The notes under the pieces were generated by a model. It searched no databases. It had not been told where the DNA came from and was given only the letters and a program-made list of their open reading frames with translations. Both the position numbers and the translations under genes were made by a program. A stretch of 35,334 nt of DNA from a virus (lineage: Duplodnaviria > Heunggongvirae > Uroviricota > Caudoviricetes): IMG/VR virus record IMGVR_UViG_2778261179_000021, positions 1 to 35,334 of that record; one strand, 5' to 3'. Numbering within the stretch: position 1 is the stretch's first letter; every line of letters begins with the position of its first letter. Shown here one piece after another: positions 1 through 20,436 of the stretch.

Positions 1-21
1 ATGCGAGGGACAGTCGAAATT

Positions 22-351
22 ATGCGTTATCCCGTCACTCTTACACCCGCGCCGGAAGGCGGTTATATGGTTTCTTTTGTGGATATCCCTGAAGCGTTGA
101 CGCAGGGCGAAACTGTCGCTGAAGCGATGGAAGCGGCAAAAGATGCTTTACTGACCGCATTTGATTTTTATTTTGAAGATAACGAGCTTATCCCTTTACC
201 TTCGCCATTAAATAGTCATGATCACTTTATTGAAGTGCCTTTGAGCGTCGCCTCTAAGGTATTGCTGTTAAATGCTTTTTTACAGTCAGAAATCACTCAG
301 CAAGAGTTAGCCAGGCGAATTGGCAACCCGAATGTAGTCAACCCAAAATAA
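22..351 (+). CDS. hicB: HicB-family antitoxin-like protein; C-terminal HTH appears truncated
   Basis: GAGGGA RBS about 10 nt upstream of ATG at 22 (track ORF 1..351 starts at an in-frame ATG at the window edge). N-terminus MRYPVTLTPAPEGGYMVSF...QGETVAEAMEAAKDAL fits the HicB antitoxin fold. The C-terminal ...SEITQQELARRIG looks like the first helices of an XRE-type HTH, then 8 unrelated residues and a stop. Confidence 0.6.
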   Translation: MRYPVTLTPAPEGGYMVSFVDIPEALTQGETVAEAMEAAKDALLTAFDFYFEDNELIPLPSPLNSHDHFIEVPLSVASKVLLLNAFLQSEITQQELARRIGNPNVVNPK

Positions 352-583
352 CTAAAAATTTTGCAATAAAAAGCCCCATCTCAAGGACAAGGCTTAGAAA
401 TCAACTAATTAACATAGTTTCCAGATCAAAGGGGTTATAATGAAATCCATAAAAGGTGATCTGTTAGCTGGGTGCTGTATATCTAAAATGTTACTTAATT
501 AATATCGTTCTGGTGGTTAGCTTTCATCGCATCTCACCATTTTTGAGTAATCTTCATGCTATTGAATTGCATCATTTCACCTC

Positions 584-1363
584 TTACTCTGCGTCTACCA
601 TGTCACATGCAAATTGAGTGTGTTTATATTCAGAATCAAATTTTGGTTCAATTACTTCAAGACGCATGTCACCTTTTTTGCTTACCCAGATGTTATAAGT
701 GTTAACACGTCCAATAGCATCCTGTTTGGATTTACCTTCCATTGCGTTTGGATTCTCTTTAGATGGCTTGAGACTTGATTTATAAACATCATACTTGTCG
801 GAATACACAAAAGATACAGGAACATCGTCTACCATTTTGATCTTAAGTTTACCGCCGTTATTATCAAAAGTTTTGTTTCCGTAGAGTTTATCTTTTACAG
901 CTTCTGTTTCCTCACCATCGATAACTTTCCATGTAAATTTTGTAGTACATGCGTAAATCGCGGTAACATTCAGTTTCTTTACTTCTTCCTGTTTCGGTTG
1001 TTCTTCTTCAATCTTCGCAGAAGTCTCTGAATCGCTCTCTGACGCGGTTTCTTCTTTAGATAATACATTCATCAAGTTTTGGATTTGAGCGTTGTATACA
1101 GCCTCCAGTGGCTGAATCTGCCCGATATTGATCATTGTATCACGAACAGTTTTATTCCAGTTTCGTTGCTCTTGTTTCAGAGACGGATCAATCTTAACAG
1201 CCTTAACATATACTTCATGAAGTTTAGAATCCAGTGCGGAGATTGACTCATTAGCACAAATAAACTTCTCTGATTTGGTAGTGGCTTTAGCGCAATCAAA
1301 GGACGCAGCATCAGCACCGAAAGCAGTAGCAGAAAGAACGATAGCAGCGATAATGTTTTTCAT
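584..1363 (-). CDS. secreted protein with DUF1311/LprI-like N-terminal domain
   Basis: ATG at 1363 with AAGAGG RBS; N-terminal signal peptide MKNIIAAIVLSATAFGADA; FDCAKAT...FICANESISALDSKLHEVY...QEQRNWNK pattern resembles DUF1311 (lysozyme-inhibitor LprI N-domain). Confidence 0.6.
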   Translation of the reverse strand: MKNIIAAIVLSATAFGADAASFDCAKATTKSEKFICANESISALDSKLHEVYVKAVKIDPSLKQEQRNWNKTVRDTMINIGQIQPLEAVYNAQIQNLMNVLSKEETASESDSETSAKIEEEQPKQEEVKKLNVTAIYACTTKFTWKVIDGEETEAVKDKLYGNKTFDNNGGKLKIKMVDDVPVSFVYSDKYDVYKSSLKPSKENPNAMEGKSKQDAIGRVNTYNIWVSKKGDMRLEVIEPKFDSEYKHTQFACDMVDAE

Positions 1364-1721
1364 TTTATACCTCTTTTGGTATGGACTGACTTTTAGATGC
1401 TTACTTTATTGATTTTTGATATTTTTTCAATTATTGGGATGAGATTTAGTAATTAAATTAAGAAATTAATGCTTGACAAATTAAAAAGGTACTGTTCCAC
1501 GGATGAAATAAAGGGAGTTTTCGGCACCCCGGTATTTGATGTGCGTGTGAGATTCTAAAACGTGATCACTTCACTTATGGCGCGGTCGCTACGCGACTAT
1601 TAACCCACTTCCTAACCCTTACCATTACTGGATCTTTCCCTTCGTTAGAATGCGATTTAGGCGCTTAGATTGTGCGTAAAACCAATAAATAAAATTACGC
1701 AAATTTAATGGAGGATAACCA

Positions 1722-2276
1722 ATGAAAGAAGAATTAACCCTTACAGAAATTTCCCGTTTATATGGCTATACATTGAATGGTGGCGGTAAGCGATGGTTAG
1801 AAAGGGGATTGCCATTTAACACCAATACCCGCCGCGTGCCAGCCAAAGAAGGAACAGAATGGGTCTTGAAAAATATTATCAACCCGCTTAAACAAACTTC
1901 TATCAAAGAACAAATCGACGTAGAGAAATTACGCCGTGAACGTGCTTTGGCAGATGCAGCCGAACGAGAGAACCAGGAAAAAATGAATCTCCTGATTCCT
2001 GTCGGTTATGTAGAACAGGAACTAGCGGAATACTGCGGGAAAGTGAAACAGACTATTTTGCAGATTTGTACGATCGATGCCCTAGAAATTTTAGAATCCG
2101 CCACTGATCAGAAAACATTGAAGAATAAGCTAAGGGAGATCATCGAACGTCGTTTAAATGAAGTAGGGGACTTGTTCGAAAATGCAGATTTGGGAGAAGA
2201 CGAGGAAGAAGAATTAGCATTAATGGATGAACCGGAACAAGAACCAGAAGAAGACGATGAATTTGATGTGTCTTAA
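1722..2276 (+). CDS. putative small terminase subunit (Nu1-like winged-HTH protein) or DNA-binding regulator
   Basis: GGAGGA RBS; N-terminal HTH-like segment LTLTEISRLYGY...RWLERGLPF, then an EKLRRE-containing helical region and a very acidic C-terminus; by-eye resemblance to lambda Nu1 (G-M/L-P-V/F ... EKLRRE). Confidence 0.45.
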   Translation: MKEELTLTEISRLYGYTLNGGGKRWLERGLPFNTNTRRVPAKEGTEWVLKNIINPLKQTSIKEQIDVEKLRRERALADAAERENQEKMNLLIPVGYVEQELAEYCGKVKQTILQICTIDALEILESATDQKTLKNKLREIIERRLNEVGDLFENADLGEDEEEELALMDEPEQEPEEDDEFDVS

Positions 2277-2376
2277 ACATTAGATACTAAATATATACGT
2301 GAAGGATGTTGAGCTGGTCAACGTCTACGGGGGAGAACATCCCCCGCTAACCTTTTTCTTATTTGAGGATTTACCT

Positions 2377-2478
2377 ATGGTTGAATTTTTGATTTATCTG
2401 GCTGTAGGATTAACTATCGTATATTCACTTGCTCACATTGGCATTTCTACTGTGTGTAACGCTTTCAAGTATCATTAA
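2377..2478 (+). CDS. small hydrophobic membrane peptide (33 aa)
   Basis: GAGGA RBS 7 nt upstream of ATG; translation MVEFLIYLAVGLTIVYSLAHIGISTVCNAFKYH is a single predicted TM helix; not in the ORF track because shorter than 60 aa. Confidence 0.35.
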   Translation: MVEFLIYLAVGLTIVYSLAHIGISTVCNAFKYH

Positions 2479-2531
2479 TTAAATCGATGAATTGAACTAT
2501 AGATGATGGTCATTTTCAAAGAGGATTATCT

Positions 2532-2705
2532 ATGGATCTTTTTGTCTACTTTGCTACTCTGCTGTTTTTGACTATCGTCGCTGGCATTAAATTGATTTTT
2601 ATATCGCTGGTGGTGTTTTTCAAATTTCTAATCGGTACGCCTTACGGCTGGGTATGCTTAATCCAGTTTATTCTTTTTAGTTGCTGTAAAAAGGATACTA
2701 AATAA
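2532..2705 (+). CDS. small membrane protein (57 aa, two hydrophobic segments)
   Basis: AAAGAGGA RBS upstream of ATG at 2532; strongly hydrophobic translation MDLFVYFATLLFLTIVAGIKLIFISLVVFFKFLIG...; followed by two plus-strand terminators. Confidence 0.4.
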   Translation: MDLFVYFATLLFLTIVAGIKLIFISLVVFFKFLIGTPYGWVCLIQFILFSCCKKDTK

Positions 2706-2863
2706 TAGTGTAATCTGCCTTTTCTCCTTATGGTTATTAACAGGGGATCTTCTTTGAGGATTCCCGATTAAAAGCCATAAAACACACTCCAGTACAGTGT
2801 TTTCATAGTCAGTGATCTATACAACACAAAAACATAACAAGTATAGATTGAGTATTAATCCTC

Positions 2864-2887
2864 CCGCCCTTCGGGGCGGTTATTTTT
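2864..2887 (+). terminator. intrinsic terminator (CCGCCC-TTCG-GGGCGG hairpin plus T-run)
   Basis: Perfect 6-bp GC stem with TTCG tetraloop followed by TTATTTTT. Confidence 0.6.
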
Positions 2888-2963
2888 CTGGCTTTAAAGA
2901 ATAATGTAGCATTATGTTCATTATAACCTCATCTTTGTTGTGCAAACCTAACCTAAACTTACT

Positions 2964-2990
2964 AGGGACTCTTCGGAGTCCCTTTTTTAT
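2964..2990 (+). terminator. intrinsic terminator (AGGGACTC-TTCG-GAGTCCCT plus T6)
   Basis: 8-bp stem, TTCG loop, TTTTTT run; abuts the stop codon of the convergent minus-strand gene. Confidence 0.65.
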
Positions 2991-3928
2991 TGGCAGTAAG
3001 AAAAGTTAGTACCGTACATTTCATCATGAAGCATTGCAGCATTGCGTTTCTGTTCTTCTTCCTCGTCTACCGCATCACTAGAAAAATGAGATTTGCCCTT
3101 AAAAGAACGAAGCAATTGCAGTGCAGCCATCGGATCACGCATCACATCGATTTTCACTTCTACTTCATCATTTGCGGCCTCATCAGCCGCATTTTCAACT
3201 ACTGCCACCGGAGCAACTTCTTTAGCTTTCAGTTCTTCAATTTCAGCTTTCTGGGCTTCGATAATCTGGTCTTTTTCTTCCAGTGCAGCTTTCAGTTCTG
3301 CGATCTGTGCTTCCAGTGCAGCAAAGCGATCTTCTACAACAGGAGAAACAGCATTAACCTGTGCTTCCAGTTCCAGAAATGCTTCGCAAGATTCAATACG
3401 TTCTTTCTCTTCACCTTCATAAGCAACCAGTTCTACAACTTCTTTTTCGGTAGCGTGGCTGTTAAAGAATACAGCAAAGTAAGGATTGCCGGATTTAGTG
3501 AAGTTCAGTTTAGCTTTTCCGGTAACTTCTTTACGACGACCGAAGGTGATCTGGCAATCAGCGGTATCCTGAAAATCCATGTTAGGAGCGGAAACGATAG
3601 CAGTATCACCAGCAATCACCAGGTGGAACAGTTCAGAAGAGTTCTTAACGGTAAAGGTAACGATGTGGTCTACTGCAACGTCTTTAGCAGGTTTAACGCG
3701 GTCGATTGCTTTACGAATGCCGTTAGGCAGTTTACCGTCAACACCAAAGCCAGCCGCGATCAGTGCTTCACGATGTGCTTTAAAGCCAGCGAAAGCGGAT
3801 TTCTGCTGCGCAAAGGAAACATGAGCAACAACTTTCGGCTGAATCTTCTTGTTTGCTTCGGTGCCAAATTTGATAACTGCTTTAGCGTTGGTTACTTCGT
3901 TAGTGAAAAAGTTAGCGGAAAATAACAT
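2987..3928 (-). CDS. hypothetical protein with central coiled coil and acidic C-terminal region (313 aa)
   Basis: ATG at 3928 with GGAG RBS; long ORF; heptad-like region ...FAALEAQIAELKAALEEKDQIIEAQKAEIEELKAKE...; second gene of a leftward operon downstream of LexA-like boxes. Confidence 0.7.
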   Translation of the reverse strand: MLFSANFFTNEVTNAKAVIKFGTEANKKIQPKVVAHVSFAQQKSAFAGFKAHREALIAAGFGVDGKLPNGIRKAIDRVKPAKDVAVDHIVTFTVKNSSELFHLVIAGDTAIVSAPNMDFQDTADCQITFGRRKEVTGKAKLNFTKSGNPYFAVFFNSHATEKEVVELVAYEGEEKERIESCEAFLELEAQVNAVSPVVEDRFAALEAQIAELKAALEEKDQIIEAQKAEIEELKAKEVAPVAVVENAADEAANDEVEVKIDVMRDPMAALQLLRSFKGKSHFSSDAVDEEEEQKRNAAMLHDEMYGTNFSYCQ

Positions 3929-3970
3929 TATAAATACTCCTGTGGAAAGTTAGTTTTAATTGTTCATCGC

Positions 3971-4004
3971 AAAAGCCCCCTTGTTGCCGCAAGGGGGCTT
4001 TTTT
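3971..4004. terminator. bidirectional intrinsic terminator
   Basis: 9-bp perfect stem GCCCCCTTG/CAAGGGGGC flanked by AAAA on the left and TTTTTT on the right. Confidence 0.6.
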
Positions 4005-4042
4005 ATTTTTAAAGCCATCATATAATTCTCAGTCAAAGTTGA

Positions 4043-4222
4043 TTACCAAACGGTAGCTTCAATCTTCACTTTAATGTCATATCGTTTTAGCAGTTTTCTA
4101 AAATCAGAGGGGTCAATCCCTTCTTCCTTCAAAACCGCCAGCTTGTCACCCTGCATCGCTTCAAAATAACGTTTAGCAATCGGGAGTAATACTTCTCGTG
4201 TGAATCGTACAGGTTTAGCCAT
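4043..4222 (-). CDS. small HTH-module protein (59 aa), paralog of the 7412..7645 and 7675..8280 proteins
   Basis: Internal ATG at 4222 preceded by GAGGGA RBS (track ORF starts further upstream at 4282); motif PVRFTREV...EEGIDPSDFRKLLKRYDIKV...IEATVW is shared with the 77-aa protein (RFTKEQ...HGISIAQFYKNMKKLDIKF...IVEATGF). Confidence 0.55.
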   Translation of the reverse strand: MAKPVRFTREVLLPIAKRYFEAMQGDKLAVLKEEGIDPSDFRKLLKRYDIKVKIEATVW

Positions 4223-4320
4223 TTTTAATCCCTCATTGTTAGGTTTAAAAAATCTTAAAAAAGAGCTTTTCGCTCTGAACAATTCTATTTATAAAATGTT
4301 TTTCGAAAAACCCTGTAAAA

Positions 4321-4342
4321 CCACTGTATATCCGATCAGTGG
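4321..4342. promoter_or_regulatory. LexA-box-like inverted repeat (CCACTGTATATCCGATCAGTGG)
   Basis: CTG-N10-CAG with a consensus-like left half ACTGTATAT; lies immediately upstream of a candidate minus-strand -35 (TTTACA) for the 4222 gene. Confidence 0.4.
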
Positions 4343-4405
4343 GAGCACGAATTGCTAAAGAGAAGATTAATAATTAATCAATCCGTACAATATTCAACCG
4401 AAAAA

Positions 4406-4444
4406 GCACTGTATATCTAACCAGTGCTGTATGAGTTAACAGTG
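4406..4444. promoter_or_regulatory. two overlapping LexA-box-like sites, including TGCTGTATGAGTTAACAGTG (CTGT-N8-ACAG)
   Basis: 4406..4427 GCACTGTATATCTAACCAGTGC; 4425..4444 matches the SOS-box core CTGT-N8-ACAG with the left half CTGTATGAG as in the E. coli recA box. Confidence 0.5.
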
Positions 4445-4580
4445 AGTCAGGAGATTTTCAGAAGTGAACAATCATTTTTCATGCATGTATTTATACACGA
4501 AAAAATCATGCTTATCATCTATATGGGGATTGTTTGGAAAATTTCAACCCTTACCAGTGATAAAAAGTATAAAATAGTTC

Positions 4581-4594
4581 TTGACACATGTCAA
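4581..4594. promoter_or_regulatory. operator-like imperfect palindrome TTGACACATGTCAA overlapping a -35-like TTGACA
   Basis: Outer arms TTGAC/GTCAA perfectly symmetric; TTGACA hexamer at 4581..4586. Confidence 0.3.
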
Positions 4595-4790
4595 CAAACA
4601 TGATCTAAGCGAGAGGTGACTATCAAAATTTTTGTTTGAAAATGGTAGATTAGGATTATCAACCTTTATAATCTATTATGGCACGGAGACCTTTTGATGA
4701 TTCCTTTTAAATCATTAGATTACGCCACTTTTTGGTGATTTTTTGGTTAAATAATATACAATAATTTTCTATCAAAATATTTGATGGGAA

Positions 4791-4986
4791 TTGCCCCCGA
4801 AATTCTGAATTTTTGCCCCCGAACAAAATCCCAAGATTCTACTATCCTATTTTTGCCCCTGAAACCTACTATTTTTGCCCCTGAAATTCTGGGAAACAGT
4901 GATTTTGCCCCTCATTTTTGCCCCTGAAATGCCAATAATTGCCCCTGAAAATCTAATTTTTGCCCCTGAAATTTTCCCCCGAAAAG
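4791..4986 (+). repeat. iteron array: about 9 direct copies of TTTTTGCCCCTGAAA
   Basis: Cores at about 4793, 4815, 4855, 4877, 4907 (degenerate), 4920, 4941, 4962, 4976 (degenerate), all in the same orientation, with spacings of mostly 21-22 bp or multiples; inside a 1.4-kb region lacking credible ORFs. Confidence 0.8.
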
Positions 4987-5118
4987 GATTGGTGAGAAAA
5001 ACTCTTTATAAAACATTAACTTGGGTGGGGGTAAAGGCGGGGGATTCGGCGTGCATAGATATTATATAACACATTCGCTACGCTCATGTGTAAAACCAAA
5101 AATAACCAAAAAGATATT

Positions 5119-5138
5119 AGGAGGGCTTTGCCCGACTG
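5119..5138 (+). repeat. 20-bp direct repeat copy 1 (AGGAGGGCTTTGCCCGACTG)
   Basis: Matches 5508..5527 at 19 of 20 positions; contains internal GGGC...GCCC dyad. Confidence 0.75.
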
Positions 5139-5507
5139 CGCGAAGCGCTAACCAATTACTTCTAGTAACAACTAATTTAAACTAGATGATACTAGATGGT
5201 CTTAGAAGGAATTAACTAGTTTGCTCGCTCGCTTCGCTCACTCTCAAACGTCTGCGACGCCACTGCGTGGCATCGAGAATCACTTTTGAAAGGATTTTCT
5301 TAGAAAGGGATTTAATACTAGTTACTAACTGATTCTAGTAAACGAACGAAGTGAGTAACAATCACTTTCTAGAAAGGTATTGGTATCCCTTCGGGATTGC
5401 AACCTTCGGTTGCTAAATTGCTTCCTGATTATTATTTCTCCAAAAGAAAGATTCTTATATTCTAAAGATACTTCTTCGTTTTGATGATGATTTAATCAAA
5501 ACTATGA

Positions 5508-5527
5508 AGGAGGGCTATGCCCGACTG
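5508..5527 (+). repeat. 20-bp direct repeat copy 2 (AGGAGGGCTATGCCCGACTG)
   Basis: Matches 5119..5138 at 19 of 20 positions; 389 bp downstream of copy 1. Confidence 0.75.
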
Positions 5528-5612
5528 AATACAATCACCTTTCATAATAACAAGAATTTTCTCTTTATAAATAATATTAGATTGATTCACTTTCTTTTAG
5601 AGGATTTCCACT

Positions 5613-6080
5613 ATGAACCATAAAATGACTACCACTACTCCTTTCATCCTGTTAGGTTTTGATGCTGATAGCTTCCACAATGACAAGTTAATGAAGATGT
5701 TCCGTGAACGTGGTTATAACATCCTTTTCAATTCCGATGAATCTCATTTCTCTAGTGCATGGTATGCCTTCCACCGTGATAAGAAGCCGACCATTGTTGT
5801 TAACGTCTTCACCGATGAAGAACGCTTAAAGTACCAGAATCTACCAGCAATTATTGTTCGTGATGATCTTCCGTTTGAAGTCCGTTCCGGTGACATTGAC
5901 CTGGGTAGCTTCGTTACTGTCTATGAACTGGATGAAGCAATGTTTAACTACGGTAAAGAAACCGCTCAGGAAGCCCAAGAACACGATGAAGAGGATGAGG
6001 AAAACGAAGACTACGCACCAATCTGTTTCTCTTCTCAGAATGGCTTCTACGGTTACGATGAAGGCTTAGATATGCTGTAA
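5613..6080 (+). CDS. acidic hypothetical early protein (155 aa)
   Basis: AGAGGA RBS; ORF rich in D/E with an acidic C-terminal stretch EAQEHDEEDEENEDY; first plus-strand gene after the non-coding hub. Confidence 0.65.
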   Translation: MNHKMTTTTPFILLGFDADSFHNDKLMKMFRERGYNILFNSDESHFSSAWYAFHRDKKPTIVVNVFTDEERLKYQNLPAIIVRDDLPFEVRSGDIDLGSFVTVYELDEAMFNYGKETAQEAQEHDEEDEENEDYAPICFSSQNGFYGYDEGLDML

Positions 6081-6115
6081 GTTAGGTCAACCCTTTGGCG
6101 TCTTGTCAAGGGGTA

Positions 6116-6143
6116 TTGACAAAATTTTCTGACTTTTTATGAT
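6116..6143 (+). promoter_or_regulatory. sigma70-type promoter (TTGACA-16 nt-TATGAT)
   Basis: Consensus -35 TTGACA at 6116..6121 and -10 TATGAT at 6138..6143 with a 16-nt spacer, upstream of the 6202 and 6441 genes. Confidence 0.55.
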
Positions 6144-6201
6144 TATCGCACTTGACAACTTTGAACCTATTTGACCTAGATTTGTAAAGAGGATGTTAAT
6201 T

Positions 6202-6348
6202 ATGAACACTACTAAGAAAATTGATGGACGTAAAAACCCGAACCGCAAACCGTGGACCCCAAACCTGAATTTCTCAATGGTTGACTTCCATGAACGCCAG
6301 CGTCGCATTCAAGAAGAAATTGATCGCGCGATTGCTGAATCTAAATGA
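6202..6348 (+). CDS. small basic protein (48 aa)
   Basis: AAGAGGA RBS 7 nt upstream of ATG; translation MNTTKKIDGRKNPNRKPWTPNLNFSMVDFHERQRRIQEEIDRAIAESK; downstream of the strong promoter; absent from the track because shorter than 60 aa. Confidence 0.4.
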   Translation: MNTTKKIDGRKNPNRKPWTPNLNFSMVDFHERQRRIQEEIDRAIAESK

Positions 6349-6440
6349 GATAAAAATTTCTTTATAAATAAAATTGTTCCGGTGATGCTGCCGGAACTAG
6401 GAGGACCAAATCACTAAACCGTTTAAGGGGAATTTTTACT

Positions 6441-7271
6441 ATGAATACTGTTACTACTATGAATACTGCTGTTAAAACTGCTTCCGTGTCTCTGGTTGTT
6501 GATAACACCAAACCGCTGACCATGTCTACCCGTCAGATTGCTGAATTGACCGGAAAGAATCATAAGGATGTTATGCGTGATTTTCGTCGCATGATTGATT
6601 CTCTTGAAAAAGGAAGCGAATTAGCCGGGCGCAATTTTGCGCTGGGGTATTTTGTAGAATCTTCATATTTTGATAAGAATAATCAATCTCGCCCGATGTA
6701 TGAACTGGACGAAGATCTCTGTAATACTCTGGTTATGGGATACGATGCACCGCTTCGCTTCAAAATTGCTAAAGAATGGCGTTTGATGAAAGAAGGGAAA
6801 GCTAATGTTCCGGTTAATCCATATGAACACTTTGAAGAAACAGACTGGATCGAACTGGCGTTAAAGAAAACTCGCGAAAACAAACAACTGATTGAACTTC
6901 ATGTTCGTAAGTCTGTAGATAGCCATTCAATGACGCGTCTGTTAGGCGCTAAAAAGGGCGCTACGAAGGTTAAAGAAGCACTGACGGCCTTGCGTACTGC
7001 TGGATACATTGAGCGCGTCTATGATGAAAATAACAAGCCGTGTGGGTATGTTGCTAATGATTCCGCTTTACCGTTTTGCAGCATGAACGCTCACTATCAG
7101 CTTTCTTTTACTGTTGATGTGCTTCCGGTGTTGGTTGAATTTGGTGTTCTGGAAGAAGAACAAAAAGCAACTCTGAATCTTCCTAAGCCGAACAACACTA
7201 TTCTGATTCAAAATAAAGCGGCTGAACGTCTCCGTCAGAATGTTGGATCACTGGAAGTCTTCGGACTGTAA
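6441..7271 (+). CDS. Rha-family phage regulatory protein (antirepressor-like)
   Basis: N-terminal motif MSTRQIAELTGKNHKDVMRDFRRMIDSLEK is characteristic of the phage Rha domain; 276 aa; followed by an intrinsic terminator. Confidence 0.7.
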   Translation: MNTVTTMNTAVKTASVSLVVDNTKPLTMSTRQIAELTGKNHKDVMRDFRRMIDSLEKGSELAGRNFALGYFVESSYFDKNNQSRPMYELDEDLCNTLVMGYDAPLRFKIAKEWRLMKEGKANVPVNPYEHFEETDWIELALKKTRENKQLIELHVRKSVDSHSMTRLLGAKKGATKVKEALTALRTAGYIERVYDENNKPCGYVANDSALPFCSMNAHYQLSFTVDVLPVLVEFGVLEEEQKATLNLPKPNNTILIQNKAAERLRQNVGSLEVFGL

Positions 7272-7279
7272 TAATTTTT

Positions 7280-7305
7280 AGCCTCGCCTAGTGCGGGGCT
7301 TTTTC
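7280..7305 (+). terminator. intrinsic terminator after the Rha-like gene
   Basis: AGCCTCGC-CTAGT-GCGGGGCT hairpin (one G-U pair) followed by TTTTT. Confidence 0.55.
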
Positions 7306-7379
7306 ATACCTACATCACGCGACTTTTCGCGCCATCTTCCACCAACCCGCCGATGGCGTTTTGGACACCCTACAGATAC

Positions 7380-7403
7380 AAAAAAGCCACTCCGAAGAGT
7401 GGC
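7380..7403 (-). terminator. intrinsic terminator for the leftward HTH genes
   Basis: GCCACTC-CGAA-GAGTGGC hairpin preceded on the + strand by AAAAAA (a T-run on the minus strand). Confidence 0.55.
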
Positions 7404-7411
7404 AAAGAGAA

Positions 7412-7645
7412 TCAAAAACCTGTTGCTTCTACGATCTGACCATCACCGATCTGAACATAGAATTTAATGTCTAACTTCTTCATATTCTTATAGAATTGGG
7501 CGATTGAGATCCCATGTTCACTAAGAATCTGTTCTTTCGCTTCCTTACCACGATCCGCTGTATAGTAAGCGTAGGCAATATCAGCCATCTGTTCTTTAGT
7601 AAATCGTGCCGGACGACCGCGAGTAGCTTTAGTAGTCATAGTCAT
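7412..7645 (-). CDS. small HTH-module protein (77 aa), paralog of the 4043..4222 protein
   Basis: ATG at 7645 with GGAGAAA RBS (track ORF begins at an upstream GTG); TRGRPARFTKEQMADIA...HGISIAQFYKNMKKLDIKF resembles psq/resolvase-type HTH seen in phage DNA-binding proteins and some small terminases. Confidence 0.6.
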   Translation of the reverse strand: MTMTTKATRGRPARFTKEQMADIAYAYYTADRGKEAKEQILSEHGISIAQFYKNMKKLDIKFYVQIGDGQIVEATGF

Positions 7646-7674
7646 TTTCTCCAAATTAAAGTGAATGTTCACCT

Positions 7675-8280
7675 TTATTTAGAGGACTTAGATTTTATAG
7701 GAAAAAGTTCTCCATCGTCAACTGACATAAAGAACTCGACCTTAATCTCGTACTTCTTCAACCGTGAATAATATGTACCCCGACTTATATCAACCTTGCG
7801 AAGCACTTCAAAGAAGGATTTAGGATCGTTGTAATAGTGGCTGTACTTCACGTTAGCGAGTTCTACAAACAATTCCCTTGTATCACCATATCCTTTCTTA
7901 AAAGCTATGTTACGTGGCATTGTAATAGCCATATTATCCCTTGTCTGCTTCAACACTTCTCTGATCGGCTTCCACTGCAAACGATAGATAGGACCGTCAT
8001 CAATGCGATAATAACGCTTGATATCAAAATCAAACCAATCTCGGACTCTCCGAAACTCTGTATGTGATGTTCTATGCTTCTTAAAGAAGTTGTGAACGTC
8101 TCTATAGCCATTATCACGGTAAAATTCTATTAAAATCTCTTTCGCTTCCTCACGGCTAAACCCAGATGTTGTGTAATCGGTCTTTAAGTGCTTATGTTTT
8201 ACTGGCAAACGATATTCATGATCGGTACAACAAGACAAGGCTAATTCTACTTCATCTCTTTGTTGCTGATTAATTAGCAT
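7675..8280 (-). CDS. protein with two tandem HTH-like modules related to the small HTH paralogs (201 aa)
   Basis: ATG at 8280 with AAGGGGG RBS; internal duplication (…FFKKHRTSHTEFRRVRDWFDFDIKRYY… and …FFEVLRKVDISRGTYYSRLKKYEIKVEFF); transcribed divergently from the large terminase gene. Confidence 0.65.
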   Translation of the reverse strand: MLINQQQRDEVELALSCCTDHEYRLPVKHKHLKTDYTTSGFSREEAKEILIEFYRDNGYRDVHNFFKKHRTSHTEFRRVRDWFDFDIKRYYRIDDGPIYRLQWKPIREVLKQTRDNMAITMPRNIAFKKGYGDTRELFVELANVKYSHYYNDPKSFFEVLRKVDISRGTYYSRLKKYEIKVEFFMSVDDGELFPIKSKSSK

Positions 8281-8367
8281 ACAACCCCCTTAAATCTTAA
8301 TACCCGTATTTATCAAAATATCAACAATTTAATAAATACCTTCATATTTCGTAATGAGGGTAATTAC

Positions 8368-10272
8368 ATGAAACTGATTTCGAACAAGGCCAAATTAAAA
8401 AAGATTCTCAGAAATGTTTCTGCTGCAATTCGCCCACCTAAAGCGATGAAACCTAGTGAATGGGTAGAGGCTAATGTAGTTGCAACCGATGGTGTTAAAG
8501 CCGGATCTCTTATTAAATTGCATCACTTCCAACGTGGGATGATGGACGCGATTACCGAAGATAAGCGAAAGATTGTCATGAAATGCTCGGCGCAGTTGGG
8601 TAAAACTATGGTGCTCAACGGTATTATCTTTCACAGGATCGCCACCAATCCAACCAATATAGGTGTTTTACAAGCGAACGTTCGAGAATTGAACTCATGG
8701 ATCGCGGGTAAGGTGAAGCCAGTATTAGAGGCAACCCCAGAATTAAAGGCGATGATCACCGACAAATCGGATCGCAATGCCGTTAATAACACATCGCAGA
8801 TACAGCTTAGAAATGGGTCGTTTCTTTATTTCATGTCATTGAATAGTCCATCCCATCTCCGGGGTAAGACTTTGCCGTTGATCCTTGCAGACGAGGTGGA
8901 TGGTTGCGACGAATCAGACGAAGGGAACCCGATCCAGCTAGCGGAACAACGTGCTTCCACTTTCGGGGAAGATGCAAGGATCGTAATTGCTTCTACTCCA
9001 ACGTCGCGGGATGGGGCGATAAACCAACAATACGAACTCTCAGATAAACGAAAATACTATGTTCCATGCCAGCATTGCGGACACCGACACGTAATGGAAT
9101 GGAGTAACGTTCATTTCGATTGGCATCAAGTTAACGGTAAATCACTGCCTAACCCAGATACAGCCGTTTATCGTTGCCCGTCATGTGAAACTGATTGGAC
9201 AGAAGGGGATCGCCTACGTGCTGTTGCTAAGGGAGAATGGATCGCCACCGAACCTAATGCGGAAGTAATCGGTTTTCATGCTAACCGCCTTATGTCTCCG
9301 TTTAGTTCTATCCGTGCGTGTGTGGTGGATTTTGCTGATAGCTACGCGAATATGTCACTGGCAACGTTCTATAACACTGTCTTAGGTGAAACCTTCGATG
9401 ATCTTAACGAAGACCGCACAGCCGACGAACTGGAAACGCTGAAAACTGACATTAGCCTAGACAACATCCCCGATGATGTTCTGGCTCTGGTTGGTGGTGT
9501 TGACCAGCAAAAAGACCGTCTGGAATCTACCTTGCTGGGTATTTCTCGTAAAGGGCTATGCGTAGTTGATCACCGATCATTCTATGATGTGAACTGCGAA
9601 CGCCACGAATCGCCAGCATACAGCCAGCTTTACAACTTCCTGAAAGCGAAATTCTATACCCGATCCGGTCAACGAATCCCAATGCTATCTGCTTTCGTGG
9701 ACTCATCAAACGGACGAGCTACGCAAGTGATCTACCGATTCTGCACACAATGGCAAAACCTAACAGCCATTAAAGGGGCAAGCAATGTTGATGCACCAAT
9801 CCTTCCGGTAAAAGACACAAGAACGGGCGGTTTTACTCTCAAAATTCTGGGCGTAAACAACCTTAAGACGATGATCCGTGAAATGATTAACCGGAACTTG
9901 AGAGATGGCGATCCTCACACTGTTTTCCAGATTGGCGACGTTCCTGATGACTATTGCGAGCAATTGCTTTCTGAACAGTTGAAACGGCAGGGTAATACCA
10001 CACGTTGGGTAAAAGTTGGTCAGCAACGAAACGAGGCGCTCGACTGCCTGGCTTATTCCTATGCTGCTTCTCGCCATGTACTCAATAAAATGTCATGGGA
10101 AAAACTCGAAGCCATCAAAGATAGTTTGAACCGTGAACCAGAAGAATCCGTAGAAGCTCCTAAATCGCAATCTGACGAGAAAATAGAAGAAACTAAGCCA
10201 ATCACACGACCACAACGTCAAAACATCGCCAGACGCCCAAATAGAGGCCGTAGCTGGGTAACATCGTTCTAA
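8368..10272 (+). CDS. terL: terminase large subunit, lambda GpA family
   Basis: 634 aa; by-eye matches to lambda gpA landmarks: SAQLGKT Walker-like segment, zinc-ribbon-like PCQHCGH...RCPSCETDW, FYNTVLGETFD (lambda FVNTTLGETWE), QRNEALDCLAYSYAA (lambda RRNEALDCFVYALAA). Confidence 0.85.
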   Translation: MKLISNKAKLKKILRNVSAAIRPPKAMKPSEWVEANVVATDGVKAGSLIKLHHFQRGMMDAITEDKRKIVMKCSAQLGKTMVLNGIIFHRIATNPTNIGVLQANVRELNSWIAGKVKPVLEATPELKAMITDKSDRNAVNNTSQIQLRNGSFLYFMSLNSPSHLRGKTLPLILADEVDGCDESDEGNPIQLAEQRASTFGEDARIVIASTPTSRDGAINQQYELSDKRKYYVPCQHCGHRHVMEWSNVHFDWHQVNGKSLPNPDTAVYRCPSCETDWTEGDRLRAVAKGEWIATEPNAEVIGFHANRLMSPFSSIRACVVDFADSYANMSLATFYNTVLGETFDDLNEDRTADELETLKTDISLDNIPDDVLALVGGVDQQKDRLESTLLGISRKGLCVVDHRSFYDVNCERHESPAYSQLYNFLKAKFYTRSGQRIPMLSAFVDSSNGRATQVIYRFCTQWQNLTAIKGASNVDAPILPVKDTRTGGFTLKILGVNNLKTMIREMINRNLRDGDPHTVFQIGDVPDDYCEQLLSEQLKRQGNTTRWVKVGQQRNEALDCLAYSYAASRHVLNKMSWEKLEAIKDSLNREPEESVEAPKSQSDEKIEETKPITRPQRQNIARRPNRGRSWVTSF

Positions 10273-10344
10273 TAACTCGCCGTCCTTCGGGGCGGCTTAC
10301 TCCTAAATATTGTTAATCCAATAACAATTAAATAAGGGGTAATT

Positions 10345-10839
10345 ATGAGTTTAGAACTAATTCCCTTAGTAATTCGTAAAGGCGAAAAAATCACGCTGGC
10401 GAATGAAGAGGGTGTAACAATTCAGGTAGGAAATAGTAAAGGTATCATTTATCAGGTTGATGATACTCCGGCTAATCACGAGATTAAAACCTTAGATTTT
10501 GCCGAGGGTAAATATACCATCGTAACCACGTTGGAAGATGAACTGGTATCAATGCAGGAATTAACTGTTTTACCTATTTTTCAGCGTCAATCCAAAAAAG
10601 AACATCTGCGGGAAACTATCGCCACCATCGAGCAAGTTATTTTCGCCAGGCTATCGGGGGACGAGGCCGCATTATCTCAAATGACAGTGAAAGGGAATAC
10701 TTTCGCCTATGAGTCATTAGGTGTTCTCCAGCAATTAAAGACTGATTATGAACGTCAACTGTCTAAATTAATTCAAGCCGAACGACGTAAACAGGGAATT
10801 AGCCCGATTAAAAATATCAAATTACGTCTTACGCGATAA
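10345..10839 (+). CDS. head-associated protein between terminase and portal (possible head-tail joining protein)
   Basis: AAGGGG RBS; 164 aa; position corresponds to gpW in lambda-like order; no recognisable motif. Confidence 0.5.
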   Translation: MSLELIPLVIRKGEKITLANEEGVTIQVGNSKGIIYQVDDTPANHEIKTLDFAEGKYTIVTTLEDELVSMQELTVLPIFQRQSKKEHLRETIATIEQVIFARLSGDEAALSQMTVKGNTFAYESLGVLQQLKTDYERQLSKLIQAERRKQGISPIKNIKLRLTR

Positions 10840-10849
10840 GGGGTAAATC

Positions 10850-12361
10850 ATGTTTAATCTTTTTCGACGCAAAAAGGCGGTAGAAACTCCAGTTAAAACT
10901 AATCACCGCCAGCAACAACAAAAAATTTTCATCGACAAACAAGTAGAAAAATTCCAGAAAGATTTGTCTAAACGTTCTTTGGGCTTAGTCGGTGATCGCA
11001 TTGATGGATCACTTCAACAAGACACTATTACAGGAACCTTCAATAAGGCTCTCAAATCGAACGGTAAGCGCCTTTATGACCAGGGTCGTACTCTGGCCTT
11101 AAACACTTCCGTAGGTAGTCGCTACACGCAATACATCACCGATATGGTGGTTGGTACTGGTCTAGATCCGAAGCCGTCAGTTGTTAAATCAAATGGCAAA
11201 CTTGATAGCGCACTGAATAAGCAGATCGAGAATGCTTTCTGGAAGTGGGCGCAGAATGCTAAACGCTTCTCTCGTAACGGTCGCTTTAACTTCCGTGAAT
11301 TGCTGGTAATGGCTGAACGTGAGCGCGTTATGGGTGGTGAGTGCTTCATAGTTTTAACCAAAGAAAACAATGAGTTAAATGTTTCTATCCTGTCTGCTGA
11401 TAAGTGCGACTGGACGCTCAACCGTGAAGTAAGCAAAGAACGCGCTATCTATCAGGGGATCGAGTATGACGTAGAAACAATGCGCCCTGTTGCATTTTGG
11501 TTTCGTAAAATCAACCTACTGACTCAGACTTACACAGGTGATAACTATCGCGTAGATGCTTCGCAAGTATGCCATTATTATCAACCACTTGCGGCTGAAT
11601 CTCTGCGTGGTGTGACTGACTTCCTGCCAGTGATTAAGGATATCGCACATCAAGACGCATTCCGCTTAACTGCTATCGTCCAGAAACGTATTGCAGCTAG
11701 CTCTATGGGCTTTATCGAACGTCCGAAAGATTCTGGTGACGATTTTGATACTGGTGAAGAGGATGAACAATATCAAGCGCCGGAAGTAGTACAGGATTTT
11801 GCACCGGGTACTATTCAGGAATTGCCGGAAGGGGCAACGATCAAGAGCATCCAGGCGACGCAAAGCGGTGATGATTTCAATTCCTTCAATGATGCGATGT
11901 TTACTAGCGTATCAATGGGCTTAGGCGTGTTCAAACAGGGCTTGACTGGTGATACTTCCCAGATCAACTACTCAGCCGCGCGTTTTGGGGAACTAACCCA
12001 GCGTAACCGTGTTAAAGCACTGCAAAACAAATTAATTGAAACAGTGGTATTGCCAATTTTCGAAGCGTATCTGCGTCATTATTCCGCGCGTGGTATTGTT
12101 CCGATTCGTATTACTGCAATTCCGCATATTATCGATAACACTACTATTATTCGTCCGCGTTTTGAATCCGTCGATCCATTTAAAGACGTAAGCGCCGAGA
12201 TTGCTTTAATTGATAACGGACTTAAATCACGTACTGCCGTTATATTAGAACGTGGTGATGATCCTGAAAAAGTATTCTCAGAGATTCAAGCCGAAAAGAG
12301 CGCACTAAATATTATCGTTGATGGTGAGGGTGAAGAAAAAAATTCCCCAGCCGATCCCTAA
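10850..12361 (+). CDS. portal protein (lambda gpB-like)
   Basis: 503 aa ORF immediately downstream of terL and upstream of the protease-capsid gene; size and position typical of a lambda-family portal. Confidence 0.75.
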   Translation: MFNLFRRKKAVETPVKTNHRQQQQKIFIDKQVEKFQKDLSKRSLGLVGDRIDGSLQQDTITGTFNKALKSNGKRLYDQGRTLALNTSVGSRYTQYITDMVVGTGLDPKPSVVKSNGKLDSALNKQIENAFWKWAQNAKRFSRNGRFNFRELLVMAERERVMGGECFIVLTKENNELNVSILSADKCDWTLNREVSKERAIYQGIEYDVETMRPVAFWFRKINLLTQTYTGDNYRVDASQVCHYYQPLAAESLRGVTDFLPVIKDIAHQDAFRLTAIVQKRIAASSMGFIERPKDSGDDFDTGEEDEQYQAPEVVQDFAPGTIQELPEGATIKSIQATQSGDDFNSFNDAMFTSVSMGLGVFKQGLTGDTSQINYSAARFGELTQRNRVKALQNKLIETVVLPIFEAYLRHYSARGIVPIRITAIPHIIDNTTIIRPRFESVDPFKDVSAEIALIDNGLKSRTAVILERGDDPEKVFSEIQAEKSALNIIVDGEGEEKNSPADP

Positions 12362-12406
12362 TAACCAACGGGGGCGCAATGCCCCCAATTAATTAAAGGT
12401 GATTAA

Positions 12407-14410
12407 ATGCTTAAATTTCGCCGCGATCTTAACGGTTACGGTGGGGTTATTAATGAAGGGCATAACGATCAATACGAATTTGAAATTGCTTTCTCAAGTA
12501 CACAGCCTTATCAGCGCCAATTTTGGGATGAGCAAAATCAAGAAATGGTGGTATTAGATGAAATTCTGGTACATACACCGGAAGCGGTTGATCTGTCTCG
12601 TCTGAATAATAACGCTCCGTTGCTGTTCAATCACAATTTCGATAATCACATTGGTGTCGTTTGTAACGCTCGAATCGATGCGGATAACGTAGGTCGTGCT
12701 CTGGTTAAATTCTCCAAGCATGGGACTATGGCTAATGATATTCGTAACAAAGTCATTGAAGGTACGATGGAAAAAATATCGGTCGGCTATGACATTAAAG
12801 AGTATCACATCGATTACGCCAAAGGGCAATTGATTGTTACTAAGTGGGCACCCTATGAACTCTCATTTGTCACCGTTCCCGCAGACGATACGGTCGGTTT
12901 AAATCGCTCTCTAAATACTATCACAGTTAATTTGGAGGCTAAACGCGATATGACTAAAGAACAAATTGAAGAAATCAAAGAAGAACAAGAATCCGCTCAG
13001 GTTGAAGAAACTCCGGTAGAAGAAAATAAAGAATCGGAAGTAGAAGAAACTCAAGAGCGCCAAGTTGAAGAGAATAAAGAAGATGAAAATCTCGAAGACG
13101 GAAAAGACGCTGAACATCCTGAAAGTGTTGATGATGATAGTTCAACTGTTCGGGAAGCAGAAGAAGTAAAAGAAGAACGTGAAGCCGCTCCGGTTGAAGA
13201 AGAAAAAATCGAAGAAGTGGCTGAACGTTCCGAAGAAGACGAATTAGAAATTCGCGAGATCGCTCGCGAGCTAAATATTAACGACGAAGAATTAGAACGC
13301 GCATTGGCAGTTAAAGATATGACGCCGGAAGCATTCCGCACTAAGGCACTAAATAACATTACCAATGCTCAACGTATTAACGAACAACAAATTAAGGACT
13401 CTAAAATGGAAAAAACTTTTGACCTGAACAACGTAATTCGCTCTCTGGTAGATGGTGAAGCTCTGGGTGCTAACGAAGCCGAGTTTTCTGCAATGGCTGC
13501 TACTGCAACTATGCAGCGTGGTCGTGCTGCTCGCGGTGGCTCTGTATTCGTTCCGACTGCTGCTATGCGTGCTGCTGCTGATGGTAACACCAAAGCTACT
13601 CTGACCGCTGTAACCGACGAAAAACTGCTGAATGATTCCTATGTAGCGATGCTGATGCCGGAATCCGTTCTGGGTCGTCTGGGTGTGAAAGTCCTGTCTG
13701 GTCTGACTTCTCCGACTGCTATTCCGAAAATGACCGCTTCCAGCGTTGAATCTTTCGGCTTCGTTGATGAAAACGGTGCTGCACCGGAAGGTAAAGCTGA
13801 ATTTGCAAACGTGAAAATGGCTCCGAAAACTTTTGCTGGTGGCAACCCGATCAGCCGTCAGTCTCTGAAAACCGTTCCGGGCATCGCTACCCTGATCACT
13901 GATCACATTAACCAAGCTGTTCGTGTCAAACTGGAACAACTGATTCTGTCTGATAAAGAAAATGCTCGTGGTCCGGCTGGTGTGATTAAGCAACTGGTTG
14001 ATGCAAGCCGTGTTGAGAAGAAAGCTGCTTTCTCTTACAAAGACTTCCTGAAAGAAATTGCTAAACTGACCGACGCTGGCGTTCCTGCTCAGGCGATCAA
14101 GTTTGCGATGAGCGGTGCAACTGCTGCTGAACTGGAATCTACCCTGAAAGATAACGGTGTTTCCGGTTATATCATCGAAAACGGTAAACTGGCTGGTTAC
14201 GACGTAGTTACTTCTGGTGTTATTCCGGTAGACCACATCGTTCTGGGTGACTTCTCCGCTATTACCATCGGTGAATGGGGCGGTCTGGAACTGGACATTG
14301 ACGACACTACCTACCGCGCACAGTCCGCAATTGTTCCGCGTATCTGGGTAGATCTGGATTATGTAGTTACCCAGCCGGAAGCTCTGAAAGTTCTTCACGT
14401 CTCTGAATGA
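12407..14410 (+). CDS. fused prohead protease (HK97/S78-like) - acidic scaffold-like linker - major capsid protein
   Basis: 667 aa; N-terminal domain ends with the protease-family signature ...YELSFVTVPADD; about 130 residues of E/K-rich low-complexity linker; C-terminal about 330 aa consistent with an HK97-fold capsid protein; ends in TGA. Confidence 0.8.
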   Translation: MLKFRRDLNGYGGVINEGHNDQYEFEIAFSSTQPYQRQFWDEQNQEMVVLDEILVHTPEAVDLSRLNNNAPLLFNHNFDNHIGVVCNARIDADNVGRALVKFSKHGTMANDIRNKVIEGTMEKISVGYDIKEYHIDYAKGQLIVTKWAPYELSFVTVPADDTVGLNRSLNTITVNLEAKRDMTKEQIEEIKEEQESAQVEETPVEENKESEVEETQERQVEENKEDENLEDGKDAEHPESVDDDSSTVREAEEVKEEREAAPVEEEKIEEVAERSEEDELEIREIARELNINDEELERALAVKDMTPEAFRTKALNNITNAQRINEQQIKDSKMEKTFDLNNVIRSLVDGEALGANEAEFSAMAATATMQRGRAARGGSVFVPTAAMRAAADGNTKATLTAVTDEKLLNDSYVAMLMPESVLGRLGVKVLSGLTSPTAIPKMTASSVESFGFVDENGAAPEGKAEFANVKMAPKTFAGGNPISRQSLKTVPGIATLITDHINQAVRVKLEQLILSDKENARGPAGVIKQLVDASRVEKKAAFSYKDFLKEIAKLTDAGVPAQAIKFAMSGATAAELESTLKDNGVSGYIIENGKLAGYDVVTSGVIPVDHIVLGDFSAITIGEWGGLELDIDDTTYRAQSAIVPRIWVDLDYVVTQPEALKVLHVSE

Positions 14411-14542
14411 ACTAACGTAGAACCTTCTGAACCTTCCCCCGATTTGGGGGAAGAAAATCTGATTCCATCTCAGGAAGAAGAAGTTCAAGAGGTTACGGCG
14501 AAAGCCACAGTTAAAAAAGAACGTAAGACTAAAGCAAAATAA
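14411..14542 (+). other. in-frame 43-codon extension downstream of the capsid TGA stop (candidate readthrough product)
   Basis: No stop codons in the capsid frame from 14411 to TAA at 14540..14542; encodes TNVEPSEPSPDLGEENLIPSQEEEVQEVTAKATVKKERKTKAK; near-identical module follows the major tail gene. Confidence 0.5.
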
Positions 14543-14547
14543 TAATT

Positions 14548-14575
14548 AGCCCTGCCTAACGGTGGGGCTTTTTTG
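14548..14575 (+). terminator. intrinsic terminator after capsid gene and extension
   Basis: AGCCCTGCC-TAAC-GGTGGGGCT hairpin followed by TTTTTT. Confidence 0.7.
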
Positions 14576-14604
14576 TATGTAAATACTCCATAAAGGGGGT
14601 AACT

Positions 14605-14895
14605 ATGTTCAAATTATCAGAATCACAATTATCAAGAATGTTTAAGAGTGCTCCTGTATTTGTGGTGGAAGGTGGTAAATCAATTCGTGCTTACCATGAA
14701 ATTACTACTACCGACGAACAAGGGGTAATTACAGAATCAGAATTTCTATTTTGTCGTGAGGGAGACTTAAATCAGGGTGATGTTGTCATTGTAGACGGTG
14801 AACGCTTCAAAGTTCAATACGTTAAGCGCAATGGTGATAATACTTCTGATTGCTTTATTGCTCGTGCAGGGGGTACACATGCTCGCTACCGTTAA
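14605..14895 (+). CDS. putative head-tail adaptor / head completion protein
   Basis: AAAGGGGG RBS; 96 aa; first gene after the capsid terminator; function inferred from position only. Confidence 0.45.
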   Translation: MFKLSESQLSRMFKSAPVFVVEGGKSIRAYHEITTTDEQGVITESEFLFCREGDLNQGDVVIVDGERFKVQYVKRNGDNTSDCFIARAGGTHARYR

Positions 14896-15301
14896 TAATA
14901 TGCCTAGACTGAAAATCAAACGCGCCTTGCAGGATATTATCGAACAAGATTTAGGTCTGGCTTTAAACGTAGAACAAACTCAGCAAGGCTTTAGTGATGA
15001 TGTGGTTTGTTGGATTACCGGAATGAATGAGACTTACAATAGGGTCCGTGGTGGTAATGCAATGCAAGCTGAATGCGTTATCGAAATGCAGTTGTATTCT
15101 CAGAATCATGAAACCAAAATTCATGAGGGTATTTGCCAGATAATCCAGATTCAGCCGGATAATCCACGTTTTAAAGATTTGGGCTTCTCTATTTCAGATA
15201 TCACTCCAGTAGCTTCTAATACCGATTATGACGATGATTCTAGTGATGGGGGTATCGTTGGGACACTTAGCCTTAAATTTTCTTATCTAGCGCGTTTTTA
15301 A
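14879..15301 (+). CDS. putative neck / tail completion protein
   Basis: Track ORF 14798..15301; preferred start ATG 14879 with AGGGGG RBS, overlapping the upstream stop (ATGCTCGCTACCGTTAA); function inferred from position. Confidence 0.45.
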   Translation: MLATVNNMPRLKIKRALQDIIEQDLGLALNVEQTQQGFSDDVVCWITGMNETYNRVRGGNAMQAECVIEMQLYSQNHETKIHEGICQIIQIQPDNPRFKDLGFSISDITPVASNTDYDDDSSDGGIVGTLSLKFSYLARF

Positions 15302-15310
15302 GGGGTAATA

Positions 15311-16144: not shown

Positions 16145-16219
16145 TTCACTTCCTAAATAAAACATGAACGTTGGGAGGTTAACGCCTCCCTTATTCCTGT
16201 TTTATAGTGAGGTGATTCG

Positions 16220-19738: not shown

Positions 19739-19794
19739 TAAAAGTCGGGGGACTAGTTCCCCCGTAATAACAATTTTAATTAAGGGGTAATTCT

Positions 19795-20388: not shown

Positions 20389-20393
20389 TTATA

Positions 20394-20422: not shown

Positions 20423-20436
20423 TTGGAGTAATCAAA

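Follow-up and report, generated by a model that had tools for sequence, protein, structure and literature searches.

The window analysed here, a stretch of 35,334 nucleotides of viral DNA, opens with a plus-strand open reading frame (1..351) that encodes 116 amino acids and ends in ...QQELARRIGNPNVVNPK / ...TQQELARRIGNPNVVNPK, followed by a stop codon. Residues 8-108 of this ORF correspond without mismatch to E. coli HicB residues 1-101 (PDB 6HPB_B and 6U0I_A, E 1e-63 to 1e-67, and also the K-12 protein), while its first seven codons (MRGTVEI) correspond to an alternative start upstream of the hicB start annotated in K-12. The HicB N-terminal domain is recognised at residues 10-74 (Pfam PF15919, E 5.5e-8), and the HicA-binding domain of HicB, a partial RNase H fold, is complete, with 100% identity to the PDB HicB over residues 1-101. 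The remainder of the ORF consists of eight phage-encoded residues (NPNVVNPK) and a phage-derived stop. Translation, Pfam and PDB matches thus agree with the initial annotation, which had described the short ORF as a HicB N-terminal domain and the start of a helix-turn-helix (HTH) running into these eight residues and a stop. Intact K-12 HicB is 138 residues long, with HTH_3 at residues 88-134 (Pfam); the break after G101 therefore falls 14 residues into the HTH, in the turn before the recognition helix. No HTH match is returned by Pfam for the window ORF. The complete HTH_3 domain and the dimerising beta-strand that characterise HTH-class HicB proteins are both missing from it, and it lacks this DNA-binding domain because of the insertion described below.

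Bases 1..326 (plus strand) are host DNA, comprising the seven upstream codons, codons 1-101 and two nucleotides of codon 102 of hicB, the same as in K-12, and they constitute the B arm of an attL site. Among 5426 complete E. coli genomes, 5350 match hicB over bases 1..326/332 at 92-100% identity; the junction is crossed in only 35 of the 5426, and the other matches stop at 326/332. Comparison with these intact hicB genes places the breakpoint at most 2 nt from the position given in the initial annotation. The change to AT-rich DNA noted there is also borne out, as G+C content drops from 44% over 1-300 to 35-37% in the following kilobase. In lysogens, the equivalent ORF is annotated by RefSeq as a hicB pseudogene 'missing C-terminus'.

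An alternative raised at the outset is a naturally short HicB homologue carried by the phage; it would lack a DNA-binding domain and belong to the phage's own toxin-antitoxin system or anti-defence cargo. The review PMC11594946 describes HicB proteins lacking such a domain as common, and hicAB pairs do exist on phages, such as the prophage Cyrano. Against this reading, the 326 bases match the chromosomal gene in 5350 genomes, just 35 of which carry the phage, hicA and yncJ lie upstream in lysogens, the missing 37 codons are found at the far end of the prophage, G+C content shifts at the junction, and the intact protein has 138 residues. The 326 bases are therefore those of a chromosomal gene carried by thousands of strains, with 98-100% identity, and the comparison of empty and occupied sites refutes a phage-borne gene, to which we now give next to no credence.

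This comparison is most direct in strain 2014EL-1346-6, which is 99.8% identical to the window over 1..420. In K-12, hicA and ydcR are the neighbours of hicB. In 2014EL-1346-6 the order is yncJ, hicA, hicB 'missing C-terminus', prophage, hicB 'missing N-terminus' and ydcR, such that the cut falls between codons 101 and 102 of hicB and its remaining 37 codons reside at the other prophage end. Lysogens of this kind are 99.8% identical to the window at both ends, and a matching right junction is present in lysogens 266917_2, L3Cip3, C325 and UTME-9. Two hicB halves thus flank the prophage, and the K-12 empty site is their exact sum, in line with the original proposal of a mobile element inserted into hicB. 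The 35 complete genomes that bear the junction are of diverse origin and carry differing hicAB alleles, and the orientation of the prophage is uniform in every lysogen examined. We hold it very probable that 1..351 is the attL of a temperate, siphovirus-type prophage some 35 kb long, put into E. coli hicB by its own large serine integrase. The 'short HicB' is accordingly a prophage junction artefact, neither a phage gene nor a new HicB variant, and the true start of the prophage is base 327.

The edges of the window deserve separate consideration. It begins at an ATG of hicB, its right edge coincides with the start codon of the final phage gene on the minus strand, and this exactness gives an artificial look that could be taken for an assembly or binning chimera between the end of an E. 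coli contig and a phage contig. The junction, however, is base for base identical in 35 closed genomes from independent projects, which refutes a chimera, and the gene-boundary ends are accounted for by the way proviruses are called. Indeed, most IMG/VR proviruses of the same family end at the start codon of the terminal gene, many of them on the identical ...ACCGATGTTCAT. Since both edges of the window lie at gene boundaries, as in these other calls, they are provirus-caller cuts, and the hicB fragment is host sequence that the caller took along with the phage. We regard a chimeric junction as having a negligible probability.

With the prophage in hicB as the preferred reading, the second junction was expected past the right edge of the window, and near-identical lysogens place it there: the AA of attR lies 42 nt beyond the last start codon, so that the junction, and with it the 3' part of hicB, begins 44 nt past the edge. 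The source sequence beyond 35334 would read TGTTGTACCCCCTCGTGTTATTGTGGGTACATGATATT(T/A)GGCAA, then ACCTAAACAGGA..., the hicB 3' end and ydcR. The phage arm of attR in the integrase clade of the window (clade A, see below) carries an in-frame ATG three codons before the junction, creating a 41-residue ORF, MIFG+HicB(102-138), that would hold the recognition helix and the dimerisation strand. We considered and rejected a functional HicB C-terminal ORF made by attR, as clade B has no such ATG; the ORF is not conserved and is probably coincidental.

The prophage body extends over 327..35334 and, with the 42 nt past the window, measures approximately 35.05 kb (Pfam, PHROGs and the RefSeq annotation of collinear lysogens). 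Its gene content includes a large terminase (8368-10272), portal, capsid, gp37/gp38-type fibre, tape measure, tail tip, M15 endolysin and integrase. A small terminase is encoded at 1722-2276, 6 kb away from the large terminase gene, and a Rha/Ant-type regulator at 6441-7271. In what is presumed to be the early region (2300-8300), Pfam and PHROGs recognise no gene for a repressor, for replication or for recombination. The window and the prophage of 2014EL-1346-6 are collinear over their full length and mosaic (82-99% identity), with the ends best conserved.

Just inside attL lies a terminator-like hairpin (371..395, minus strand; a 10-pair stem followed by TTTATTG, a pattern match from a consensus scan), downstream of the leftmost phage gene. 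This gene (584..1363, minus strand) encodes a secreted protein of the LprI family, which is lysozyme-inhibitor-like (Pfam LprI, 1.6e-5; RefSeq name 'lysozyme inhibitor LprI family'), with an N-terminal signal-like sequence, and is probably a moron. At the opposite end, three or four small minus-strand genes (139, 145 and 90 aa, plus short hydrophobic ORFs) occupy 33897..35334 between the integrase and attR; they match phrog_14908 and phrog_6147, to which PHROGs assigns no function. The 139-aa protein encoded beside the integrase (33897-34316, minus strand) has a signal-peptide-like N-terminus. Its gene and the LprI-family gene, both near the prophage ends, are probably lysogenic-conversion cargo.

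Several other features of the prophage body were observed in passing. The tail-fibre gene (16220-19738) shares 71-82% DNA identity over about 17018-19669 with gp37 of the T4-like phages RB49, Phi1 and SSG23, and is followed by a gene (20437-20943) for a protein with a gp38 adhesin N-terminal domain. These three T4-like phages are virulent, and gp37 is their distal long tail fibre; the gp37/gp38 region has the appearance of a receptor-binding module that has passed between virulent and temperate phages. At 2987-3928, ORFs of 313 aa (minus strand) and 311 aa (plus strand) overlap fully. Neither has a family match; the minus-strand ORF is the one annotated by RefSeq in relatives, and the plus-strand ORF is probably a shadow of this acidic, coiled-coil-rich gene. 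Between the lysis genes and the integrase there is a variable cargo slot (31809-32154) that is nearly empty in the window; in relatives it is occupied by a DEAD/DEAH helicase, a GIY-YIG nuclease or both, which may serve in defence.

The large serine integrase is encoded on the minus strand at 32154..33833 (559 aa counted from the annotated Met, with a mechanical ORF that reaches back to a TTG at 33848). It has the domain order Resolvase (PF00239, residues 11-158, E 2.1e-14), Recombinase (PF07508, E 1.5e-7) and Zn_ribbon_recom (PF13408, E 1.6e-9) in Pfam and matches the phrog_95 integrase family (1.5e-58) in PHROGs. The catalytic motif YSYIRFSSMRQ is found at residues 6-16 (Y-x-R-x-S-x-x-x-Q context of the nucleophilic serine), and four zinc-ribbon cysteines are present as CEHC ... 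C-x10-C. A coiled-coil motif projecting from the zinc-ribbon domain controls directionality in large serine recombinases, and a heptad-like charged stretch can be read by eye in the sequence at residues ~385-450 (...IDEISRKIDNLITL...LYNQIKMAEEEMY). The distance of about 32 kb between the integrase and the hicB boundary had been remarked upon. The integrase is indeed far from the left junction; the arrangement itself is the usual one, with the gene 1.5 kb from attR.

Sequence searches matched the integrase to no solved large serine integrase, only to the resolvase N-domain 3GUV. The best matches in deposited phages are the integrases of Burkholderia phages Bcep176 (gp53), Bcep22 and JC1 and the YbcK-type recombinases of E. 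coli lambdoid phages, Perceval among them. These cover ~82-84% of the integrase with the same domain order, but at just 28-31% identity (33.8% at most, over 63% of the length), and the phages themselves are unrelated to the window prophage and have different att sites where these are known. A search of species-representative genomes found no close integrase relatives outside E. coli. No deposited phage genome matches the element, the sole match being the gp37-type tail-fibre segment of T4-like phages.

The att sites can be resolved by aligning the empty and occupied sites. K-12 hicB reads ...GAATTGGCAAACCTAAACAGG, the window junction ...GAATTGGCAA|CCCGAATGTAG, and the attR of the 99.8%-identical lysogens ...CATGATATTTGGCAA|ACCTAAACAGG. 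The corresponding sites are attB (K-12), GCGAATTGGCAAACCTAAACAGG; attL (window), GCGAATTGGCAACCCGAATGTAG; and attR (lysogens), CATGATATTTGGCAAACCTAAACAGG. An identity block, TTGGCAA (320..326), is common to attB and the clade-A attP and is present in both attL and attR. In a second hicB-targeting clade of integrases (clade B), attL is TTGGCAAACCTAAATGTTG and attR is ATTAGGGAAACCTAAACAGG, and the identity block with attB is AAACCTAAA, which overlaps the clade-A TTGGCAA only at AA. Further attR variants (TAGGC-AA, TAGGG-AA and TAGTG-AA) are all consistent with AA, and in a third clade, which targets ycdX, the bases flanking AA on both sides differ among attB, attL and attR, leaving AA as the only possible point of exchange. 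Since the blocks of clades A and B, the attR variants and the ycdX clade agree, we infer from attB, attL and attR, compared in three integrase clades, that strand exchange takes place at the 2-bp dinucleotide AA (325..326).

The phage-derived P' arm of attL (CCCGAATGTAGTCAACCCAAAATA, 327..350) mirrors the P arm at the lysogen attR, the two being complementary at 16 of 24 positions, and the reconstructed attP reads ...TATTGTGGGTACATGATATTTGGC AA CCCGAATGTAGTCAACCCAAAATA.... This dyad around AA (16/24) compares with a window background of 6.1 +/- 2.2 (sd), and the same score is reached at only 6 positions in 35 kb (0.017%; shuffle p ~4e-5 to 5e-5). The sister clades show the same symmetry in attP at 15/24 (p = 1.5e-4) and 12/24 (p = 0.013), while the two attB sites score 7/24 and 8/24, which is not significant. 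T/C-n-G-G-n stands beside AA in all six half-sites. A search for inverted repeats at 320..340 had been suggested. In the window itself this search found no significant inverted repeat, the hybrid attL being complementary at ~6/24 by hand count, a chance level as expected for a hybrid site; the symmetry resides instead around AA in the reconstructed attP. The two hicB halves sum exactly to the intact gene, which indicates conservative exchange without target-site duplication.

The attP of large serine integrases is approximately 50 bp long with imperfect dyad symmetry, and attB is less symmetric. Large serine integrases leave a characteristic signature: the crossover spans 2 bp and is non-palindromic, attP is symmetric, attB is only weakly so, and the target is not duplicated. 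Judged on sequence, the element appears to possess every defining feature of the serine-integrase prophage family that can be tested in this way. Following established serine-integrase chemistry, integrase dimers would bind attP and attB and then synapse, all four strands would be cut with a 2-nt stagger at AA, and the subunits would rotate by 180 degrees before the strands are religated. The fusion ORF at the left end is a by-product of the insertion. Because AA is not a palindrome, only one orientation of insertion is allowed. Integration by enzymes of this family is unidirectional; for excision the phage would have to supply a directionality factor, and the joined attP of the excised form would read ...GATATTTGGCAACCCGAATG.... 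Pfam and PHROGs recognise no directionality factor, repressor or replication gene in the prophage; directionality factors are not known to share a common family.

The integrase end is present in 60 of the 5426 complete E. coli genomes, and in about 35 of them it lies in hicB. A sister prophage with the same architecture and a 92% identical integrase sits at AA inside ycdX, a zinc-binding phosphatase gene, for example in strain ES2, and is seen in ~27 of the 5426 genomes (12 with an exact integrase end and ~15 more with only the attP arm and ycdX). UTME-9 is a double lysogen with one prophage each at hicB and ycdX, and BS74R-D probably also has one at each site. A comparison of 13 integrases of known location separates three clades, namely hicB-A, to which the window belongs, hicB-B and ycdX. 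The hicB-B integrases are 93% identical to clade A, and the ycdX integrases are 92% identical to A and 87% to B.

Clade membership predicts the target gene in all 13 cases, both UTME-9 prophages included. The 35 diagnostic substitutions that distinguish hicB from ycdX integrases all fall outside the catalytic domain, and 28 of them are located in residues 176-351, the Recombinase and zinc-ribbon region. In serine integrases it is these two domains that read the att half-sites. The attP arms are nearly unchanged between clades. The agreement of clade and site, the position of the substitutions in recognition domains and the near constancy of attP thus argue for true targeting of hicB rather than opportunistic insertion, and the clade-target correlation, as a sequence-level pattern, supports site-specific recognition of this gene. 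Integrase domains, AA crossover, attP symmetry and clade-target match all agree with the initial annotation in holding the large serine recombinase responsible for the insertion.

Whether the prophage is still active can be weighed from the same data. An insertion by the serine integrase that has since become a fixed, cryptic prophage without excision would make the split of hicB a permanent pseudogenisation. In favour of this, the joined attP (clade A, clade B and ycdX-clade patterns) has zero matches in IMG/VR and JGI metagenome contigs, no isolated phage matches the element, and a repressor, replication gene and directionality factor are not recognised. Some relatives also carry IS1 or IS5 insertions, a large deletion or a rearrangement. 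The C325 copy is an example of such decay: it retains attR and the small genes, but its integrase is cut short and runs into a ynfF-like molybdoenzyme gene, and the matching attL lies ~200 kb away on the opposite strand, suggesting that the chromosome was rearranged with one breakpoint within the prophage. On the other hand, the structural, lysis and integrase ORFs are all open in the window, and the family is a mosaic (82-99% identity) with well conserved ends. Moreover, its spread over unrelated strains, differing hicAB alleles, three integrase clades and two targets implies repeated recent integrations. A fixed cryptic state is therefore a possible but rather unlikely outcome, and this copy may still be inducible.

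The insertion has potential consequences for the HicAB toxin-antitoxin module. According to the review PMC11594946, HicB neutralises HicA with its N-terminal domain, which masks the toxin's active site, and uses its C-terminal HTH to bind the operator of P2, a promoter serving hicB alone; E. coli HicB dimerises via a beta-strand that follows the HTH. The fusion ORF keeps the HicA-neutralising domain and has lost the recognition helix and the C-terminal dimerisation strand. Fusion HicB should thus still block HicA and would no longer repress the hicB-only promoter P2, an expectation drawn from the literature and from the survival of lysogens. The hicA gene, which lies outside the window, is located 46 nt upstream of hicB in every lysogen examined and is annotated as intact in 27 of 35. 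In the three annotations read (2014EL-1346-6, UTME-9 and L3Cip3) its protein accession is that of K-12.

In the other 8 of the 35 lysogens, hicA has a 22-bp frameshift deletion. This deletion lies between TGCG repeats, is found in ~814 of 5426 E. coli genomes (about 15%), and in non-lysogens leaves hicB as an orphan antitoxin. We considered hicA inactivation as a compensation for lysogeny and rejected it, since the same allele occurs in ~814/5426 genomes and the difference between 23% and 15% is within noise by a rough binomial estimate; the frameshift is thus not a response to the phage.

A more speculative reading is that the insertion is more than use of a neutral landing site and amounts to a reversible rewiring of a host, possibly anti-phage, toxin-antitoxin module. 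We consider this improbable. If it were true, a monomeric HicB without DNA binding would sequester HicA with P2 unrepressed, HicA would be permanently buffered through lysogeny and phage induction, and the wild-type circuit would return once the prophage excised. The lysogens in any case offer a natural experiment, a type II antitoxin without DNA binding beside an intact toxin gene.

In the literature searched, mostly main texts outside subscription journals, we found no paper naming hicB or ycdX as a serine-integrase target. Both the phage family and the hicB target site appear not to have been described previously, although they may have been catalogued earlier in large integrase screens. 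For an E. coli serine integrase that had not been characterised, the present analysis provides a fully resolved set of attB, attP, attL and attR centred on the dinucleotide AA. The hicB and ycdX clades, 87-93% identical and with nearly the same attP, constitute a compact starting point for mapping the determinants of attB specificity, a pair that should interest serine-integrase engineers.

Comparison with known systems places both partners of the junction. On the host side, bases 1..326 are the gene whose product is seen in the E. coli HicAB structures (PDB 6HPB, 6HPC and 6U0I), with the N-terminal domain complete and identical; the window ORF differs in that its HTH is cut after helix 2 and eight phage-encoded residues replace the rest. 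On the phage side, the hicB prophage would, by analogy, work like the classic intragenic serine-integrase prophages A118/comK, Bxb1/groEL1, phiC31 and SPbeta/spsM. The Listeria phages A118 and phi10403S integrate into comK via a large serine integrase, and PDB 4KIS shows an A118-type integrase bound to an attP half-site. They share with the hicB prophage a temperate tailed phage, a three-domain integrase, a host gene split by attB, a 2-bp crossover and an attP of ~50 bp with imperfect dyad symmetry. They differ in host phylum and in target, the window integrase is detectably related to theirs (phmmer) only in the catalytic domain, and their reversible 'active lysogeny' excision has been demonstrated, whereas the hicB prophage is known from static genomes alone. 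Active lysogeny as a regulatory switch calls for regulated, reversible excision that repairs the split gene while yielding no phage.

Similarly, the mycobacteriophage Bxb1 has its attB inside groEL1 and the Streptomyces phage phiC31 inside a pirin-like gene, and excision of both depends on a directionality factor. An intragenic attB, a non-palindromic central dinucleotide that sets polarity and the lack of target duplication are common to these phages and the hicB prophage. Their hosts are actinobacterial, their att sequences are unrelated, their central dinucleotides differ, and their biochemistry is fully characterised, in contrast to a prophage read from DNA. In Bacillus subtilis, SPbeta interrupts spsM and the skin element sigK; their excision is developmentally programmed, with a known directionality factor, whereas the hicB prophage has been read from static genomes. 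In these elements, as in the hicB prophage, a large serine recombinase element interrupts a gene, and in SPbeta and skin the interrupted gene is restored upon excision.
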